Shown piece after piece: positions 9,353-13,698 of a stretch of DNA of 32,000 nucleotides. The translations under genes and the position numbers were made by a program. Source of the stretch: Breznakia sp. PF5-3 (GTDB lineage Bacteria; Bacillota_I; Bacilli_A; Erysipelotrichales; Erysipelotrichaceae). Where the stretch lies: positions 36,511 to 68,510 of the forward strand of contig NZ_JAQFIQ010000006.1 in NCBI RefSeq assembly GCF_029504745.1. The letters run 5' to 3'. The notes beneath the pieces are model-generated. The model ran no database searches and was not told where the DNA came from. It worked only from the letters and a program-made list of their open reading frames with translations. Every line of letters begins with the position of its first letter. Position 1 is the first letter of the stretch.

Positions 9353-9428
9353 GGAGGTTTAGCTCAGTTGGGAGAGCATCTGCCTTACAAGCAGAGGGTC
9401 AGCGGTTCGAGCCCGTTAACCTCCACCA
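9353..9428 (+). tRNA. tRNA-Val (anticodon TAC)
   Basis: Hand-folded cloverleaf. Acceptor GGAGGTT/AACCTCC, anticodon stem TCTGC/GCAGA, loop CTTACAA, T-loop TTCGAGC, encoded CCA. Confidence 0.9.
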
Positions 9429-9432
9429 TTAT

Positions 9433-9509
<77 letters not shown>

Positions 9510-9519
9510 TTTTTTTTGT

Positions 9520-9603
9520 GGGGGGGTAGCGAAGTGGCTAAACGCGGCTGACTGTAACTCAGTTCCTTAGGGTTCGACAGTTCGAATCTGTCCCCCCCCA
9601 CCA
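9520..9603 (+). tRNA. tRNA-Tyr (anticodon GTA), class II with a long variable arm
   Basis: Acceptor GGGGGGG/CCCCCCC, anticodon loop CTGTAAC, long variable arm, T-arm GACAG-TTCGAAT-CTGTC, encoded CCA. Confidence 0.88.
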
Positions 9604-9612
9604 TTACTTTCT

Positions 9613-9688
9613 TGGGGTATAGCCAAGCGGTAAGGCACCAGACTTTGACTCTGGCATTTCACTGGTTCGAATCCAGTTACCCCAGCCA
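9613..9688 (+). tRNA. tRNA-Gln (anticodon TTG)
   Basis: Acceptor TGGGGTA/TACCCCA, anticodon stem CCAGA/TCTGG, loop CTTTGAC. The layout closely parallels E. coli tRNA-Gln. Encoded CCA. Confidence 0.88.
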
Positions 9689-9701
9689 ATTTCTTATATG
9701 T

Positions 9702-9777
9702 GACCCGTTAGCTCAGATGGTAGAGCATTTGACTTTTAATCAAAGGGTCGGGCGTTCGAATCGCCCACGGGTCACCA
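9702..9777 (+). tRNA. tRNA-Lys (anticodon TTT)
   Basis: Acceptor GACCCGT/ACGGGTC, anticodon stem TTTGA/TCAAA, loop CTTTTAA, encoded CCA. Confidence 0.9.
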
Positions 9778-9790
9778 TTTATTTATTTTT

Positions 9791-9864
9791 GCGGGTGTAG
9801 TTTAATGGTAGAACTTCAGCCTTCCAAGCTGACTACGTGAGTTCGATTCTCATCACCCGCTCCA
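9791..9864 (+). tRNA. tRNA-Gly (anticodon TCC)
   Basis: Acceptor GCGGGTG/CACCCGC, anticodon stem TCAGC/GCTGA, loop CTTCCAA, discriminator T, encoded CCA. Confidence 0.9.
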
Positions 9865-9878
9865 AATGTAAAACAAAA

Positions 9879-9908
9879 ACTTAACACTCAAATGTGTTAA
9901 GTTTTTTT
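9879..9908 (+). terminator. Rho-independent terminator of the tRNA operon
   Basis: Hairpin CTTAACAC-TCAAAT-GTGTTAAG followed by TTTTTTT. The 3' arm and T-run lie inside direct repeat copy A. Confidence 0.75.
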
Positions 9909-10081
9909 ATGCTTTTTAGAATACTTAATGATGACATTTATGATCATCACCATGATGGTTACATGGAAACATCCGTGCTATATATATTAATGAATGAGAT
10001 AAAAGCTTTTGCACTACTTCATCTGTTTTTCCTTGCACACTTCTATATATGGCTATATTGTTTTCCATTAATATTTCTCTT
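9895..10081. repeat. Direct repeat copy A (~187 bp), paired with 13309-13492
   Basis: Hand alignment with 13309-13492 gives 14 substitutions plus 3 gapped bases, about 91% identity. Homology ends sharply at ...AATATTTCTCTT. Confidence 0.85.
9925..10081 (-). pseudogene. Truncated duplicate of the 3' end of the NifX-like gene (C-terminal ~50 codons only)
   Basis: Track ORF 9925..10128 ends ...REILMENNIAIYRSVQGKTDEVVQKLLSHSLIY...CNHHGDDHKCHH. The intact gene at 13339..13698 ends ...REILKENNIAIYGSVQGKVDEVVQKFLSHSLIY...CNHHGDDHKCHH. The N-terminal two thirds are missing. Confidence 0.8.
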
Positions 10082-10138
10082 AATATGATCAAGAAATCAT
10101 AAACATCTCCTATTCTTATATTATTCAATGCTTAAAAC

Positions 10139-10948
10139 TTACTTTTCGAATTTTTGTAATTCTTCATAAGCGATATCAATATAATAATATCCACCATTTG
10201 CTGAAGAATAACCATTATATACCAAGAGTAAAAGTGAATCTTTTTTAAAATAAGAATATACAGGTTGATCTACATCATTATAATTCTTATAAAATGCTGT
10301 ATCTGCATTTTTTAAAGCATACAAAAGATTATCCCCATACTCATTCATAAAGTCCTCTCTTGCTCCACTCTCCTTAGTTAGAAATCTTGATTTGTCAAAA
10401 ACAAAGTCAACTAACTCTTGATCTATATTATAGACATCTTTCAAACACAACCTTTCACCTGTGGCTAAATTATAATTCAAACTAAATGTAGGATGCCCTG
10501 AAACATTTCTATCGACTATTTCTACTGCTGTAAATTTTATACTGAAAATCTTTCCACGCATATTCCATTCATAATCTATACCAAGAGAAATATTATCTTT
10601 TTTATAAAGTTCATTTCCATTTATATCAGCTAAAAGTAACATTTCTATTTCATTATTAATTTTATTCTCAATATCTTTATTGTGTAATTGATTAATACTA
10701 GGGTATTTTATGTTAATTGTAGGTTCATCTGTATATATACTCAAAATTTCATTAACATAAATGACCTCATTAATACCAATATCATTATAAGCATCAGAAT
10801 ATAAAATATGATCACTATTTTTTTGCGTGTTTTTATCTTTTATAACTGGATTATTTTCCGTAGTTTCTTTTTTATTAGTATTAACACACCCCACAAAAAA
10901 ACAACAAGACATAAGTATTAAAATTATAATCTTAATATTTTCTTTCAT
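10139..10948 (-). CDS. Lipoprotein with DUF4163/DUF3298-like (RsiV-like) motifs; candidate immunity protein for the adjacent LXG toxin
   Basis: Likely start at Met22 of the track ORF, preceded by AAGAGGA. Signal plus lipobox KIIILILMSCCFFVGC. INIKYPSINQLHNKDIENKINNEIE resembles the DUF4163 opening motif, and the C-terminus (YSYFKKDSLLLLVYNGY...GGYYYIDIAYEELQKF) resembles DUF3298. It lies 16 nt downstream of the toxin stop. Confidence 0.55.
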   Translation of the reverse strand: MKENIKIIILILMSCCFFVGCVNTNKKETTENNPVIKDKNTQKNSDHILYSDAYNDIGINEVIYVNEILSIYTDEPTINIKYPSINQLHNKDIENKINNEIEMLLLADINGNELYKKDNISLGIDYEWNMRGKIFSIKFTAVEIVDRNVSGHPTFSLNYNLATGERLCLKDVYNIDQELVDFVFDKSRFLTKESGAREDFMNEYGDNLLYALKNADTAFYKNYNDVDQPVYSYFKKDSLLLLVYNGYSSANGGYYYIDIAYEELQKFEK

Positions 10949-10964
10949 TTTTATCCTCTTTTCT

Positions 10965-12353
10965 TTAATCAAAATATTTCGATGCTTCATCATAGTATTG
11001 TTTTCTATCATTTAGAGATTCTTCATTATCCCATGGGTTGATTAATGCCAGTACATCCTCAACACTACCACCAGTGTCAATAACTGCATTAATTTCACGG
11101 TATTTCCAAAACCATCCTGCTGATTGCCATGGATAATTATCTGCGACATACTGATAGCCTTGATTTACTATTTCTGGATCATCTATTTGATATATTTCTT
11201 TTAAATATGCTGCAAAGGCTTTATAATTACAACGTCCGGTTAATTGGAGCCCTCCAGCACCTCGATATTTGCTACCATCACCTGGTTGTGTATTACCTAA
11301 TTGTCCGCCACTAAATGTACCTGGTTCATATTTATCAAAAGCATTTGAATTATTACCATCCCACTCTACCATATCTCTTCCTCCACCAGTTTCTTTTGTA
11401 GCTTGCGCTATAAAATGCTTTATCCGCTCAGGAGTAGTAATATTATAATCTTCTAACGCTTTATTTAAATCATAAAGAAATTCTTCAGTTACAACATCTT
11501 TTCCATCTCTTGTCTTATTCCATCCCAATAATGTCAATTGCCAACAATCTACATAAATTGTGTAATCTACAAAACCTTGTTTGCTCTTTGTCAATTTATG
11601 TAATTCCTCTATAATTTCCTTTTTTCGTATCTCATCAGCATTCCAATATTCATCTACTAGTTTATCCTGTTTCGTTTGGATACTTTCCAAAAATCTTTTT
11701 TTAAGCACTTCAAATATTTTTCCTATTTCTAAACCTTTATCCTTTTCTTTTTTCTTACTTGTTTTTGATATGATATTTCCAACCCAACTCATCTGCTTGA
11801 TATCTATTTTAAAGCTTCCACTTTTTTCATCCCATGTACCTTTTGATAACATATTCATTCCTTGCTTCACCTGATTGTAATAATATCTAGCTTCATCATA
11901 ATATCCCTCTGCTTCAATATCAAAATTATACAACCTCTCTATCATATCTTGCAAATCCCTTGTTTCATATAACTCCATATCCATCCAAGGCTGTATACCT
12001 ATCTCATATTCCATTATTTCTCTTAATCTATTAAACCTTTCAATTCCTTCATATAAATAATCAGTATCAATATACGCTGTATGCGACCCATCTACTTGAT
12101 TATGAAATTCATTCATATATCGACTATTTGCATGGATTGTAGAAGAACACATATTTTGTATTCCTTCTAACAATGGAAGCCATACCATCTGAAAATATTC
12201 TTTTCCATTATCATATGCTTTTCCTTGTAATTGCTCCTCATTAATCAACCCTATGATTTCTTGTTTTAATTCTTCAATATCCTCTATTTTATTTTGCATA
12301 TTGTGATTCATACCTTCCATCATAATATGCATCTCATTTGCATCAATAATCAT
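10965..12353 (-). CDS. LXG-domain polymorphic toxin (type VII secretion substrate class) with a GH19/lysozyme-like C-terminal domain
   Basis: The N-terminal ~200 aa match the LXG pattern (EEQLQGKAYDNGKEYFQMVWLPLLEGIQ with LQG at aa 42-44, then QVDGSHTAYIDTDYLYEGI). The C-terminal ~170 aa carry GH19/COG3179-type blocks HFIAQATKETGGG (candidate catalytic Glu), GNTQPGDGSKYRGAGGLQLTGRCNYKAF and SAGWFWKY. Confidence 0.7.
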   Translation of the reverse strand: MIIDANEMHIMMEGMNHNMQNKIEDIEELKQEIIGLINEEQLQGKAYDNGKEYFQMVWLPLLEGIQNMCSSTIHANSRYMNEFHNQVDGSHTAYIDTDYLYEGIERFNRLREIMEYEIGIQPWMDMELYETRDLQDMIERLYNFDIEAEGYYDEARYYYNQVKQGMNMLSKGTWDEKSGSFKIDIKQMSWVGNIISKTSKKKEKDKGLEIGKIFEVLKKRFLESIQTKQDKLVDEYWNADEIRKKEIIEELHKLTKSKQGFVDYTIYVDCWQLTLLGWNKTRDGKDVVTEEFLYDLNKALEDYNITTPERIKHFIAQATKETGGGRDMVEWDGNNSNAFDKYEPGTFSGGQLGNTQPGDGSKYRGAGGLQLTGRCNYKAFAAYLKEIYQIDDPEIVNQGYQYVADNYPWQSAGWFWKYREINAVIDTGGSVEDVLALINPWDNEESLNDRKQYYDEASKYFD

Positions 12354-12690
12354 TTCCTTCTCCCTCTATTCTTTTCTTCCTTTGCCAATACACTGCTTCT
12401 TCTTCCTGTTCATTTAATACTCTATTCATTTTTTTATACGCTTCTTTTTCAAACTCTATATATTCATTGTTTTTAATTAATACATTTTTATACAGCTCTT
12501 CCTTTTTACCATAAAAGGTATTGGCTCTATCTCCTTGATACCCTTCAAATACTAAAGCTAATACATTATTCGTTTCTTGTGTATGACAATATATTGCTTC
12601 TCCTGTAGATTCTATTTGCTTAAACTTTTGTTTGTTCCGATATCTTTTAATTTCTATATCCTCTAATTGTTTATTAAATTCATTATTCAT
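12343..12690 (-). CDS. Small charged protein upstream of the LXG gene; candidate LXG-associated helical partner (by position only)
   Basis: 115 aa, Lys/Glu-rich. Its stop overlaps the LXG start by 11 nt. Small helical partners (Lap / YwqH / YwqI-type) normally precede LXG genes. I recognise no family motif. Confidence 0.4.
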   Translation of the reverse strand: MNNEFNKQLEDIEIKRYRNKQKFKQIESTGEAIYCHTQETNNVLALVFEGYQGDRANTFYGKKEELYKNVLIKNNEYIEFEKEAYKKMNRVLNEQEEEAVYWQRKKRIEGEGNDY

Positions 12691-12692
12691 AG

Positions 12693-12968
12693 TTATTTTA
12701 CTTCTCGTATTGTCTTTGCCATCTTTTTATCAACATTGTCAAATGATTTTGCCATAATTAAGAAATAATCAACATCCTTTTGCAGATGAGATTCCAAATC
12801 AGATAATATAGAAAAAGTATCATTTTCACATGATACTGATTATAATATTGATTGTAGAGTACTTTTAGATACTTGTATTGAATTGTTTATTTTACATACT
12901 TTAGATTGAATCTTATGTAATATTGTTACTCTCGTGTTGACAATATCTAAACTAGATTTTAACATCAT
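12693..12968 (-). pseudogene. WXG100/Lap-like small helical protein gene interrupted by one in-frame TAA
   Basis: Hand translation from ATG 12966-12968 (RBS AAGGAAG) gives MMLKSSLDIVNTRVTILHKIQSKVCKINNSIQVSKSTLQSIL, then TAA at 12840-12842. The same frame continues SVSCENDTFSILSDLESHLQKDVDYFLIMAKSFDNVDKKMAKTIREVK to the stop at 12693-12695, 2 nt before the next ATG. Both halves are below the 60 aa track cutoff. Confidence 0.5.
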
Positions 12969-13039
12969 ATTTTCACTTCCTTTATACACTTATGACGTAA
13001 CCATTTAAATTAGCGTTCCCCTTCCATTTGAAAATTCAA

Positions 13040-13308
13040 TCAATTCCTTGTAGTTCTTTCAGATATTATTTCTAAAAAAACAAAGGAGTACAAATACACC
13101 TTTGTTTTTTGAGCAGCTAATAAACTAATCGTTCTAATACCACAATATGTATCAACAATTACTTCATCACCTTTTAATTCTAATAAAGACAATGCTTTAT
13201 CATATAGTTTTTCACATTGTTCATGATTGATTTGGTAAAATGACTTCGGTGATATTATCTTAAAAGTTAAGCCACAAAGTGTATCATAGAAATATCCTTT
13301 TCCAAATA
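13040..13308 (-). pseudogene. Internal fragment of a RumA/TrmA-type RNA (uracil-5)-methyltransferase gene
   Basis: IFGKGYFYDTLCGLTFKIISPKSFYQINHEQCEKLYDKALSLLELKGDEVIVDTYCGIRTISLLAAQKTKV matches the central region and SAM motif I of this ~450 aa family (normally CGxGT; here CGIRT). The N-terminal TRAM domain and the C-terminal catalytic half are absent. The upstream edge coincides with the repeat B boundary. Confidence 0.65.
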
Positions 13309-13492
13309 TGTTAAGTTTTTTTATACTTTTTAGAATATTTAATGATGACATTTATGATCATCACCATGATGGTTACATGAAGCATCTGTGCTATATATTA
13401 ATGAATGAGATAAAAACTTTTGCACTACTTCATCCACTTTTCCTTGCACACTTCCATATATAGCAATATTATTTTCTTTTAATATTTCTCTT
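13309..13492. repeat. Direct repeat copy B (~184 bp), paired with 9895-10081
   Basis: See copy A. It covers the 3' third of the intact NifX-like gene plus 30 bp of its downstream flank. Confidence 0.85.
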
Positions 13493-13698
13493 GCTCCTGC
13501 ACCTATGCCACCACAGATAAGTGCATCAATGCCTTGATCTTTCAAAAACTTCCCTAAACTTCCATGCCCTTGGCCATTTGTACCAATACATTCACTATCA
13601 ACAATTTTATTATCTCTTATCTCAAAGATTTTAAACTGTGTAGTCTTTCCAAAGTGTTGAAACACATTTCCTTCATCATAAGTAACTGCTAATTTCAT
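13339..13698 (-). CDS. NifB/NifX-family (dinitrogenase FeMo-cofactor biosynthesis domain-like) protein with a His/Cys-rich tail
   Basis: 119 aa. MKLAVTYDEGNVFQHFGKTTQFKIFEI and ALICGGIGAGAREIL are typical of the PF02579-type domain. The C-terminal tail is CNHHGDDHKCHH. Confidence 0.75.
   Translation of the reverse strand: MKLAVTYDEGNVFQHFGKTTQFKIFEIRDNKIVDSECIGTNGQGHGSLGKFLKDQGIDALICGGIGAGAREILKENNIAIYGSVQGKVDEVVQKFLSHSLIYSTDASCNHHGDDHKCHH

Follow-up and report, generated by a model that had tools for sequence, protein, structure and literature searches.

The window considered here, the whole stretch of 32,000 nucleotides (nt) from Breznakia sp. PF5-3 that was analysed, carries a gene for a toxin with LXG and GH19-type domains and, directly behind it, a gene for a small lipoprotein that is the candidate immunity protein against that toxin. 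All features of this toxin/lipoprotein locus are on the minus strand. Among NCBI proteins, the 269-residue lipoprotein has an identical entry, a 'hypothetical protein' from Breznakia sp. PF5-3 (Erysipelotrichaceae, Bacillota). An earlier note on this DNA had tentatively read the pair as a toxin and a surface-tethered inhibitor with the fold of RsiV, and the parts of that claim are taken up where the evidence on each is given. The two genes and the features within them are as follows.

10139–10948, minus strand: lipoprotein gene (269 amino acids plus stop, by translation), the product being the candidate immunity protein
10886–10948, minus strand: predicted signal peptide and lipobox, residues 1–21, MKENIKIIILILMSCCFFVGC, with Cys21 as the predicted lipidated residue (PS51257-style pattern and hydrophobicity)
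10784–10885, minus strand: low-complexity, low-confidence tether, residues ~22–55, between the lipid anchor and the folded domain (AlphaFold2)
10142–10783, minus strand: predicted folded RsiV-like core, residues ~56–269 (PF13739 at residues 77–118 and alignment of the family profile to RsiV)
10949–10964, minus strand: 16-nt intergenic spacer with the Shine-Dalgarno sequence GAGGA at 10954–10958 (read directly from the sequence)
10965–12353, minus strand: LXG-GH19 polymorphic toxin gene, 462 amino acids (PF04740 and PDB matches to GH19-type endolysins)
12006–12347, minus strand: LXG domain, residues 3–116, the targeting domain for the type VIIb secretion system (PF04740, E 4.4e-17, 63.1 bits against a threshold of 26.5)
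10974–11504, minus strand: GH19-type muramidase toxin domain, residues 284–460 (PDB matches, profile and catalytic motif)
11391–11393, 11364–11366 and 11238–11240, minus strand: predicted catalytic residues Glu321, Glu330 and Thr372, respectively (alignment and the motif definition of PMC11253643)

The stop codon of the toxin gene (TAA) occupies 10965–10967 and the ATG of the lipoprotein gene ends at 10948, which leaves the gap of 16 nt that the earlier note had given. Co-transcription of the two genes is implied because the spacer is this short and carries GAGGA. The start at 10948 was adopted because GAGGA precedes it and because the database protein matches. A longer ORF with its start at 11011 (290 amino acids) has neither support; its first 47 nt would fall inside the toxin gene, no Shine-Dalgarno sequence precedes it, and it was rejected.

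The lipoprotein fold and the toxin domain

As expected of a bacterial lipoprotein, the N-terminal segment of the 269-residue protein ends in a lipobox, FFVGC, that closes at Cys21 and includes the FVGC picked out earlier; the assignment is a PS51257-type pattern match only. The signal peptide is followed by a disordered stretch, with residues 21–50 having a predicted local distance difference test score (pLDDT) of 51–55 in the AlphaFold2 model. The sequence motifs quoted in the earlier note are all present: INIKYPS at residues 78–84 in the DUF4163-like half, the Tyr/Gly-rich loop NGYSSANGG at 245–253, and IAYEELQKF at 259–267. A further motif, VSGHP, is found at residues 149–153.

Direct comparison of the lipoprotein with known families gives weak scores. 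PF13739 (DUF4163/PdaC) matches residues 77–118 with an E-value of 0.0014 and 20.1 bits, under the gathering cut-off of 29.1, and PF11738 (DUF3298) gives no match at E ≤ 1. The best PDB sequence match of the lipoprotein alone is RsiV, at E 0.13. A word-indexed homologue search returned the protein itself only, with no relatives. An exhaustive HMMER search of 1.84 billion cluster representatives yielded 63 distant homologues, mostly of 240–280 amino acids, and 53 of these were aligned to form a family profile, A1. The consensus contains the motifs 'IxIxYPQI..L.D...Q..IN' and 'AHP...FYT.NID...G....L.D' (n=53). PF13739 is matched at E ≤ 0.01 by 43 of the 53 aligned members (best 1.9e-16), and PF11738 by just 2.

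The family profile matches two structures over ~200 residues each, 3cyg_A (E 3.3e-11, profile positions 52–249) and RsiV 5jen_A (E 3.2e-9, profile positions 51–248). An AlphaFold2 model of the lipoprotein built on A1 has a pLDDT of 83.1 and a predicted template modelling score of 0.77. When this model was compared with the PDB by Foldseek, six matches were obtained at E ≤ 1e-3: two chains of 3cyg, two chains of RsiV 5jen, and 3s5t and 4e72, both of which were deposited as DUF3298 proteins. No structure from outside the RsiV/DUF3298 family is among these significant matches, which have a Foldseek probability of 1.0 and moderate target-normalised template modelling scores of 0.47–0.63. The two-domain RsiV-like fold is accepted because of the profile and the AlphaFold2/Foldseek evidence, despite the weak direct hidden Markov model (HMM) scores. 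By profile and predicted structure, the lipoprotein is a very divergent member of the RsiV-like DUF4163+DUF3298 structural superfamily. The two-domain fold named in the earlier note is thus borne out. Its DUF4163 call falls at exactly the place where PF13739 matches, below the gathering threshold; its DUF3298 call finds no echo in PF11738 and is upheld by the fold that the family profile and the model give.

An RsiV orthologue would have an anti-sigma domain, a transmembrane helix and sigV as a neighbour; the lipoprotein has none of these and so is not an orthologue of RsiV. Since the fold is common to the signalling receptor RsiV, the protein could be pictured as an RsiV-like sensor that signals on the toxin, or as an accessory for secretion or activation of the toxin. 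Such a role is extremely unlikely. A lipoprotein without a cytoplasmic or membrane-spanning part speaks against it, as does the score of 8.9 bits with the NCBIfam RsiV model NF052658, for which the cut-off is 250. No extracytoplasmic function sigma gene is adjacent or elsewhere in the repeat-bounded island described below; the sole sigma-region-4-like helix-turn-helix nearby is part of a DUF134 protein encoded beyond that island. For the secretion accessory, copies of the gene that occur with no toxin (also below) fit immunity instead.

The toxin is of the GH19-type LXG class that the earlier note had assigned, with both domains recovered. Residues 284–460 match the PWe2 endolysin (9ms7, E 8e-14) and the SPN1S endolysin (4ok7, E 3e-8) in the PDB, as well as mycobacteriophage LysA domains, TfcB (7r6s) and, weakly, a class IV chitinase. 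PF00182 (GH19) gives no match to the window toxin at E ≤ 1. Most of the 59 homologues of the toxin domain from a word-indexed search do contain PF00182, and the ten closest were used for a toxin-domain profile, A2. With this profile, endolysins of the GH19 type reach E-values as low as 2.8e-36, and the classical GH19 chitinases of plants and bacteria ~1e-14 to 1e-17. The catalytic Glu-Glu-Ser/Thr triad and the substrate motif of the GH19 family have been defined (PMC11253643). In the toxin the triad corresponds to Glu321 (in KET), Glu330 (in MVEW) and Thr372 (within YRGAGGLQLTGRCNY), and both glutamates are invariant in A2. The substrate motif Y-x-G-x-G-x-x-Q-[IL]-[ST] is present as the endolysin variant, not as the plant-chitinase consensus; endolysin-type GH19 enzymes target peptidoglycan, not chitin (PMC11253643). 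Judged from sequence, the toxin's C-terminal domain is GH19-type with an intact Glu-Glu-Thr catalytic triad.

Pairing of the GH19 domain with the lipoprotein family

Lipoproteins of this family are found behind GH19 domains in many genomes. In the three closest metagenome homologues of the toxin domain (P0064, P0065 and P0073), the neighbouring gene encodes 260–275 amino acids and matches the A1 HMM at E 3e-27, 7e-59 and 1e-29, respectively. Genomes were scanned with A2, one genome per species; for the best 80 loci, open reading frames (ORFs) were called and scored with the A1 and A2 HMMs. Some 31 of these loci are from Bacillota, by record title. A gene of the lipoprotein family immediately adjoins the GH19-domain gene on its 3' side, by the A1 HMM, at 18 of the 80, all of them Bacillota and so 18 of the ~31 (L005, L010, L011, L012, L021, L032, L033, L035, L038, L050, L052, L056, L058, L059, L060, L061, L062 and L068). 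The same flanking position is occupied in five metagenome contigs. Among the ~49 cyanobacterial, proteobacterial and other loci of the best 80, no such neighbour was seen. Spacing in paired loci runs from overlap of the two genes to a gap of ~230 nt, and the two genes are co-directional except in L021 and in the metagenome contig L001 (outside the 18), where they are convergent.

The N-termini of the paired toxins are mutually unrelated. RHS repeats are found in three (L005, L056, L059), Phage_Mu_F in two (L052, L060), and DUF4280/PAAR-like sequence (L038), choline-binding repeats (L032), PG_binding_1 (L021) and LXG (the window) in one each. An orphan RHS C-terminal module with its neighbour occurs in L003, and an array in L060. 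The linker region of the window toxin was found again in L090 only, among the loci compared. In that locus P0004, second among the closest homologues of the lipoprotein, lies behind a toxin with the window-type linker and GH19 end. The cross-genome pairing that the earlier note asked about has two sides: the families are paired in many genomes, and the LXG form is a minority. Most paired toxins have RHS, MuF, PAAR-like or cell-wall-binding N-termini, and the link to LXG and type VII secretion is correspondingly a minority one.

A constant toxin domain and neighbour behind interchangeable delivery modules, together with orphans and arrays, is the signature of polymorphic toxin/immunity systems (PMC3482391). 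By their sequences and gene order, the GH19 domain and its lipoprotein neighbour fit a cassette of this kind, in which the neighbour would neutralise the toxin. Distances between toxin domains and distances between neighbours are correlated over 21 pairs (Mantel r 0.52, permutation p ≤ 2e-4). The correlated divergence indicates that toxin domain and neighbour are inherited as one unit and agrees with co-evolution; it is no proof of contact. The neighbour diverges faster, with a median identity of 22% as against 39% for the toxin domain, as is typical of immunity proteins. A hydrophobic N-terminal export or anchor segment is present in 22 of 23 paired neighbours, 14 of which have a lipobox pattern. 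Such segments are expected if it is outside the membrane that the protein has to encounter an enzyme that degrades the wall.

Two further observations concern the distribution of the families. One Eubacteriales contig (L060:303-6984) has two GH19 toxin genes, one of them MuF-type, and three lipoprotein genes of the family one after another, a toxin/immunity array with one immunity gene to spare. Many close relatives of the GH19 domain, at 37–43% identity and in proteins of 240–930 amino acids, occur in cyanobacteria (L014-L045) with no family lipoprotein nearby.

Proposed action and the surrounding island

The 269-residue lipoprotein is very probably an immunity protein, the cognate partner of the LXG-GH19 toxin encoded upstream. 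Fold, toxin domain and cross-genome pairing, the points of the earlier note that could be computed, all support it. The toxin would be exported, presumably by a type VIIb secretion system, and would cut the glycan strands of the peptidoglycan of neighbouring cells from outside the membrane. The producer, and kin that carry the cassette, would have the lipoprotein exposed on the outside of the membrane, attached by a flexible tether of ~35 residues. The RsiV-like two-domain core would then bind the GH19 domain 1:1 and block the catalytic groove at Glu321, Glu330 and Thr372. Granted immunity, occlusion of the active site is moderately likely on the analogy of RsiV, and the full reading, that of a cognate immunity protein acting as a tethered active-site blocker, is considered probable.

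The analogy rests on well-described contacts. RsiV binds in the catalytic cleft of hen lysozyme, with near-complete inhibition at 1:1, and contacts it chiefly through T165-T171 (including S169) and Y255-Y261 (PMC5014341). RsiV numbering corresponds to the 5jen chain index + 14, as verified with E88 and S93. When A1 is aligned with RsiV, the contact loops fall on the family motifs 'GAAHP' and 'HA.GDH', the two most conserved. Their window counterparts are VSGHP (residues 149–153) and NGYSSANGG (residues 245–253), and contact with the GH19 domain would probably be made through these loops, the counterparts of those that RsiV inserts into the lysozyme active site. It is because of this alignment that an RsiV-like 1:1 block of the active site is proposed.

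Several findings weigh against the lipoprotein as an active-site-blocking immunity protein, and they concern the interface, the distribution of the family and the locus itself. The aligned loops double as structural motifs of the whole family, and their conservation is therefore no proof of an interface, and the window lipoprotein is itself below both Pfam gathering thresholds. The toxin domain (net charge -14) and the lipoprotein core (net -12) are both strongly acidic, and a simple charge complementarity as in RsiV/lysozyme is absent. Bulk charge complementarity, tried by analogy with RsiV/lysozyme, gave no consistent pattern and was rejected.

The missing complementarity is one of the points in favour of immunity of a different kind, in which the lipoprotein would act by membrane sequestration, at an exosite, by binding the glycan substrate or by shielding nascent peptidoglycan, and not as a plug. 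The conserved pairing carries no information on a binding site. For a glycan-binding role it can be added that peptidoglycan deacetylases, too, carry the fold on their N-terminal side: PdaC gave PF13739 its name, and PgdA (2c1i) is the seventh Foldseek hit. Immunity with no plug is nevertheless unlikely, given that RsiV, the sole characterised member of the fold, occupies the catalytic cleft and that a rapid, toxin-correlated divergence of the neighbour is easier to reconcile with a protein-protein interface than with a conserved site for glycans.

Distribution supplies the second group of contrary findings. Nine of the ~31 Bacillota GH19 loci have no neighbour of the A1 family and no alternative lipoprotein (some of the nine resemble phage lysis modules, with an M23 peptidase adjacent in L046 and L051), and four others use a different lipoprotein family. 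The best scorers with A1, P0126, P0136, P0137 and P0145 (L085-L088), have no GH19-like neighbour; they stand in ordinary chromosomal contexts and form one compact clade amid long-branched toxin-paired members in a neighbour-joining tree. Two of the three closest relatives of the window lipoprotein are orphans. P0003 (L089) sits amid IS66 transposase genes, and P0005, a paralogue ~30% identical to the window lipoprotein, comes directly after a copy of the window's small helper gene (described below), with no DUF3958-like gene and no toxin between (L091:4603-5789, and likewise in L092). Both loci look like orphan immunity genes or loci from which the toxin was deleted. The family is thus broader than immunity. 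The search for paired members started from the toxin, that for unpaired ones from the centre of the profile, and because of this sampling bias no true paired fraction can be derived.

The stand-alone members bear on one more alternative, that the protein is a general envelope lipoprotein or an RsiV-like inhibitor of host lysozymes that lies near the toxin by accident. The genus Breznakia inhabits the insect gut, a setting in which lysozymes of the host are plausible. This alternative is very unlikely. All 26 family matches in the ~0.85 Mb of loci fetched with the toxin are at or beside a GH19 gene: 24 directly flank its 3' end and the remaining two are additional copies within the same clusters (L058, L060). 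They occur with at least six unrelated N-terminal architectures and in many genera. The co-divergence of toxin and neighbour and the confinement of the stand-alone members to a single clade also speak against an accidental position.

The third group concerns the locus. No core genes of a type VII secretion system are present within the 32-kb window, and one of two putative helper genes upstream of the toxin is interrupted by a stop codon. The toxin and lipoprotein genes and these small genes lie within an island of 3.2 kb, at ~10082–13302, between two direct repeats, and the other features in and around it are listed below.

12343–12690, minus strand: helical protein of 115 amino acids, a possible LXG-associated export helper (PF13125, DUF3958, E 0.032, full-length, below threshold)
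12693–12968, minus strand: small helical-protein gene with an in-frame TAA at 12840–12842 (DNA alignment with a ~90%-identical copy in L091)
9889–10081: left copy of a direct repeat of ~190 nt, 90–96% identical to 13303–13492 (repeat search)
13303–13492: right copy of the direct repeat, spanning the Nitro_FeMo-Co gene's 3' end and what follows immediately downstream

The L091 copy (GCA_029504715.1) of the small helical gene has CAA where the window has TAA. Pfam gave no support for the identity of this gene, which is probably a pseudogenised second LXG export helper. If the stop codon is real, export of the toxin may be impaired while immunity is kept. The Nitro_FeMo-Co (PF02579) gene itself lies at 13339–13698, and the left repeat is a dead duplicate with an ORF fragment at 9925–10128. 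Six tRNA genes adjoin at 9353–9864, and the arrangement suggests insertion or recombination at the repeat site beside the tRNA cluster. The GC content of the island (0.26–0.33, with flanks at 0.30–0.33) is uninformative, as were promoter and terminator scans of the island, which remained at background level. Within the island, an ORF of 103 amino acids at 13040–13351 on the minus strand looks like a gene fragment. It gave no significant Pfam match, and we take it to resemble a RumA/TrmA-type RNA methyltransferase where the catalytic domain begins.

A second lipoprotein family, unrelated to the first, adjoins proteins with LysM repeats and GH19 domains in four Bacillales genomes.

L006:6702-7439, plus strand: Sporolactobacillus
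L007:7909-8592, minus strand: Virgibacillus
L008:6616-7491, minus strand: Bacillus spizizenii
L009:6588-7259, minus strand: Sediminibacillus

These proteins combine a linker that is acidic and of low complexity with a conserved C-terminal domain of ~100 residues, 'EIEYARVWLQLGPNQEIDELNV.HIPAGE...VIQLAGSRLVDGSVTYS.NGDGTINVYNVPLRWD', with no match in Pfam. The family may be an alternative family of GH19 inhibitors or immunity proteins.

Comparison with known systems

A surface-tethered inhibitor of a wall-targeting effector is already established, because RsiV, X-Tfi and TipC are precedents. The 'new immunity logic' that the earlier note raised as a possibility is therefore not new: a lipoprotein inhibitor of a secreted GH19 effector is known (X-Tfi, PMC10933484) and RsiV is a known lysozyme inhibitor (PMC5014341). 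The other possibility that it raised, a new function for the fold, appears to be right. Nothing in the literature searched, which left most subscription journals outside its coverage, links RsiV, DUF3298 or DUF4163 to toxin immunity, and the same literature yielded no characterised GH19 LXG toxin. The 2012 survey of polymorphic toxins contains no chitinase, GH19 or DUF3298. A family with the RsiV-like fold as immunity protein for a GH19 toxin appears to be new, and the GH19 cassette of Bacillota polymorphic toxins, the LXG form included, appears to be unreported.

What is defined here is a probable toxin/immunity cassette of Bacillota, built on a GH19 domain and shifted among delivery systems of the LXG, RHS, MuF and PAAR-like kinds, and it offers a testable function for a large set of uncharacterised DUF4163/DUF3298-like lipoproteins. 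It also provides an evolutionary context for RsiV, whose binding and inhibition of lysozyme may derive from, or be common to, interbacterial immunity. A tentative and rather doubtful extension is that the DUF4163/DUF3298 fold arose long ago as a general inhibitor of muramidases in Gram-positive envelopes, with GH19-toxin immunity as its main use, the lysozyme sensing of RsiV and the N-terminal domains of PdaC/PgdA-type deacetylases being later derivatives. If so, many unannotated 'DUF' lipoproteins of Bacillota would be cognate or orphan immunity genes that shape killing in gut communities. Pairs of this kind could also yield specific protein inhibitors of GH19 endolysin-type enzymes.

The closest functional parallel to the pairing is that of X-Tfe(XAC2609) and X-Tfi(XAC2610) in the type IV secretion system of Xanthomonas citri, where a secreted antibacterial GH19 hydrolase has an adjacent cognate lipoprotein inhibitor (PMC10933484). 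That effector carries a C-terminal XVIPCD signal, whereas the window toxin has an N-terminal LXG domain, and the hosts are Gram-negative. The GH19-like TfcB of Stenotrophomonas (7r6s) is a detectable sequence relative of the window toxin domain (PMC11253643). No similarity between the window lipoprotein and X-Tfi was found in any search made. To our knowledge, the fold of X-Tfi is unrelated to the RsiV-like fold.

TelC and TipC of Streptococcus intermedius are similar in that an LXG toxin of the type VIIb system acts on cell-wall synthesis outside the membrane and the immunity protein is displayed on the surface (PMC6193138). TelC is a lipid II phosphatase and not a GH19 glycosidase, and TipC belongs to a different immunity family. 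The lysozyme inhibitors of Gram-negative bacteria, Ivy, MliC/PliC, PliI and PliG, are likewise envelope proteins, some of them lipoproteins, that place loops into a muramidase active site (PMC5014341). They differ in having unrelated folds, in being aimed at host lysozymes, and in lying outside toxin cassettes.

RsiV of B. subtilis (5JEN; PMC5014341) is the parallel in structure. It shares the two-domain DUF4163/DUF3298 fold and sits, as is predicted for the window lipoprotein, on the membrane's outer face; its capture of a muramidase in the catalytic cleft with 1:1 inhibition has been demonstrated, and its contact loops align with the motifs of the lipoprotein family. However, beyond this fold RsiV also has a transmembrane helix and an anti-sigma domain in the cytoplasm; its gene stands with sigV, and its target is the c-type (GH22) lysozyme of animals. 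The window protein, only ~15% identical to it, lacks any signalling part: it is a lipoprotein whose gene follows that of a bacterial GH19 toxin.

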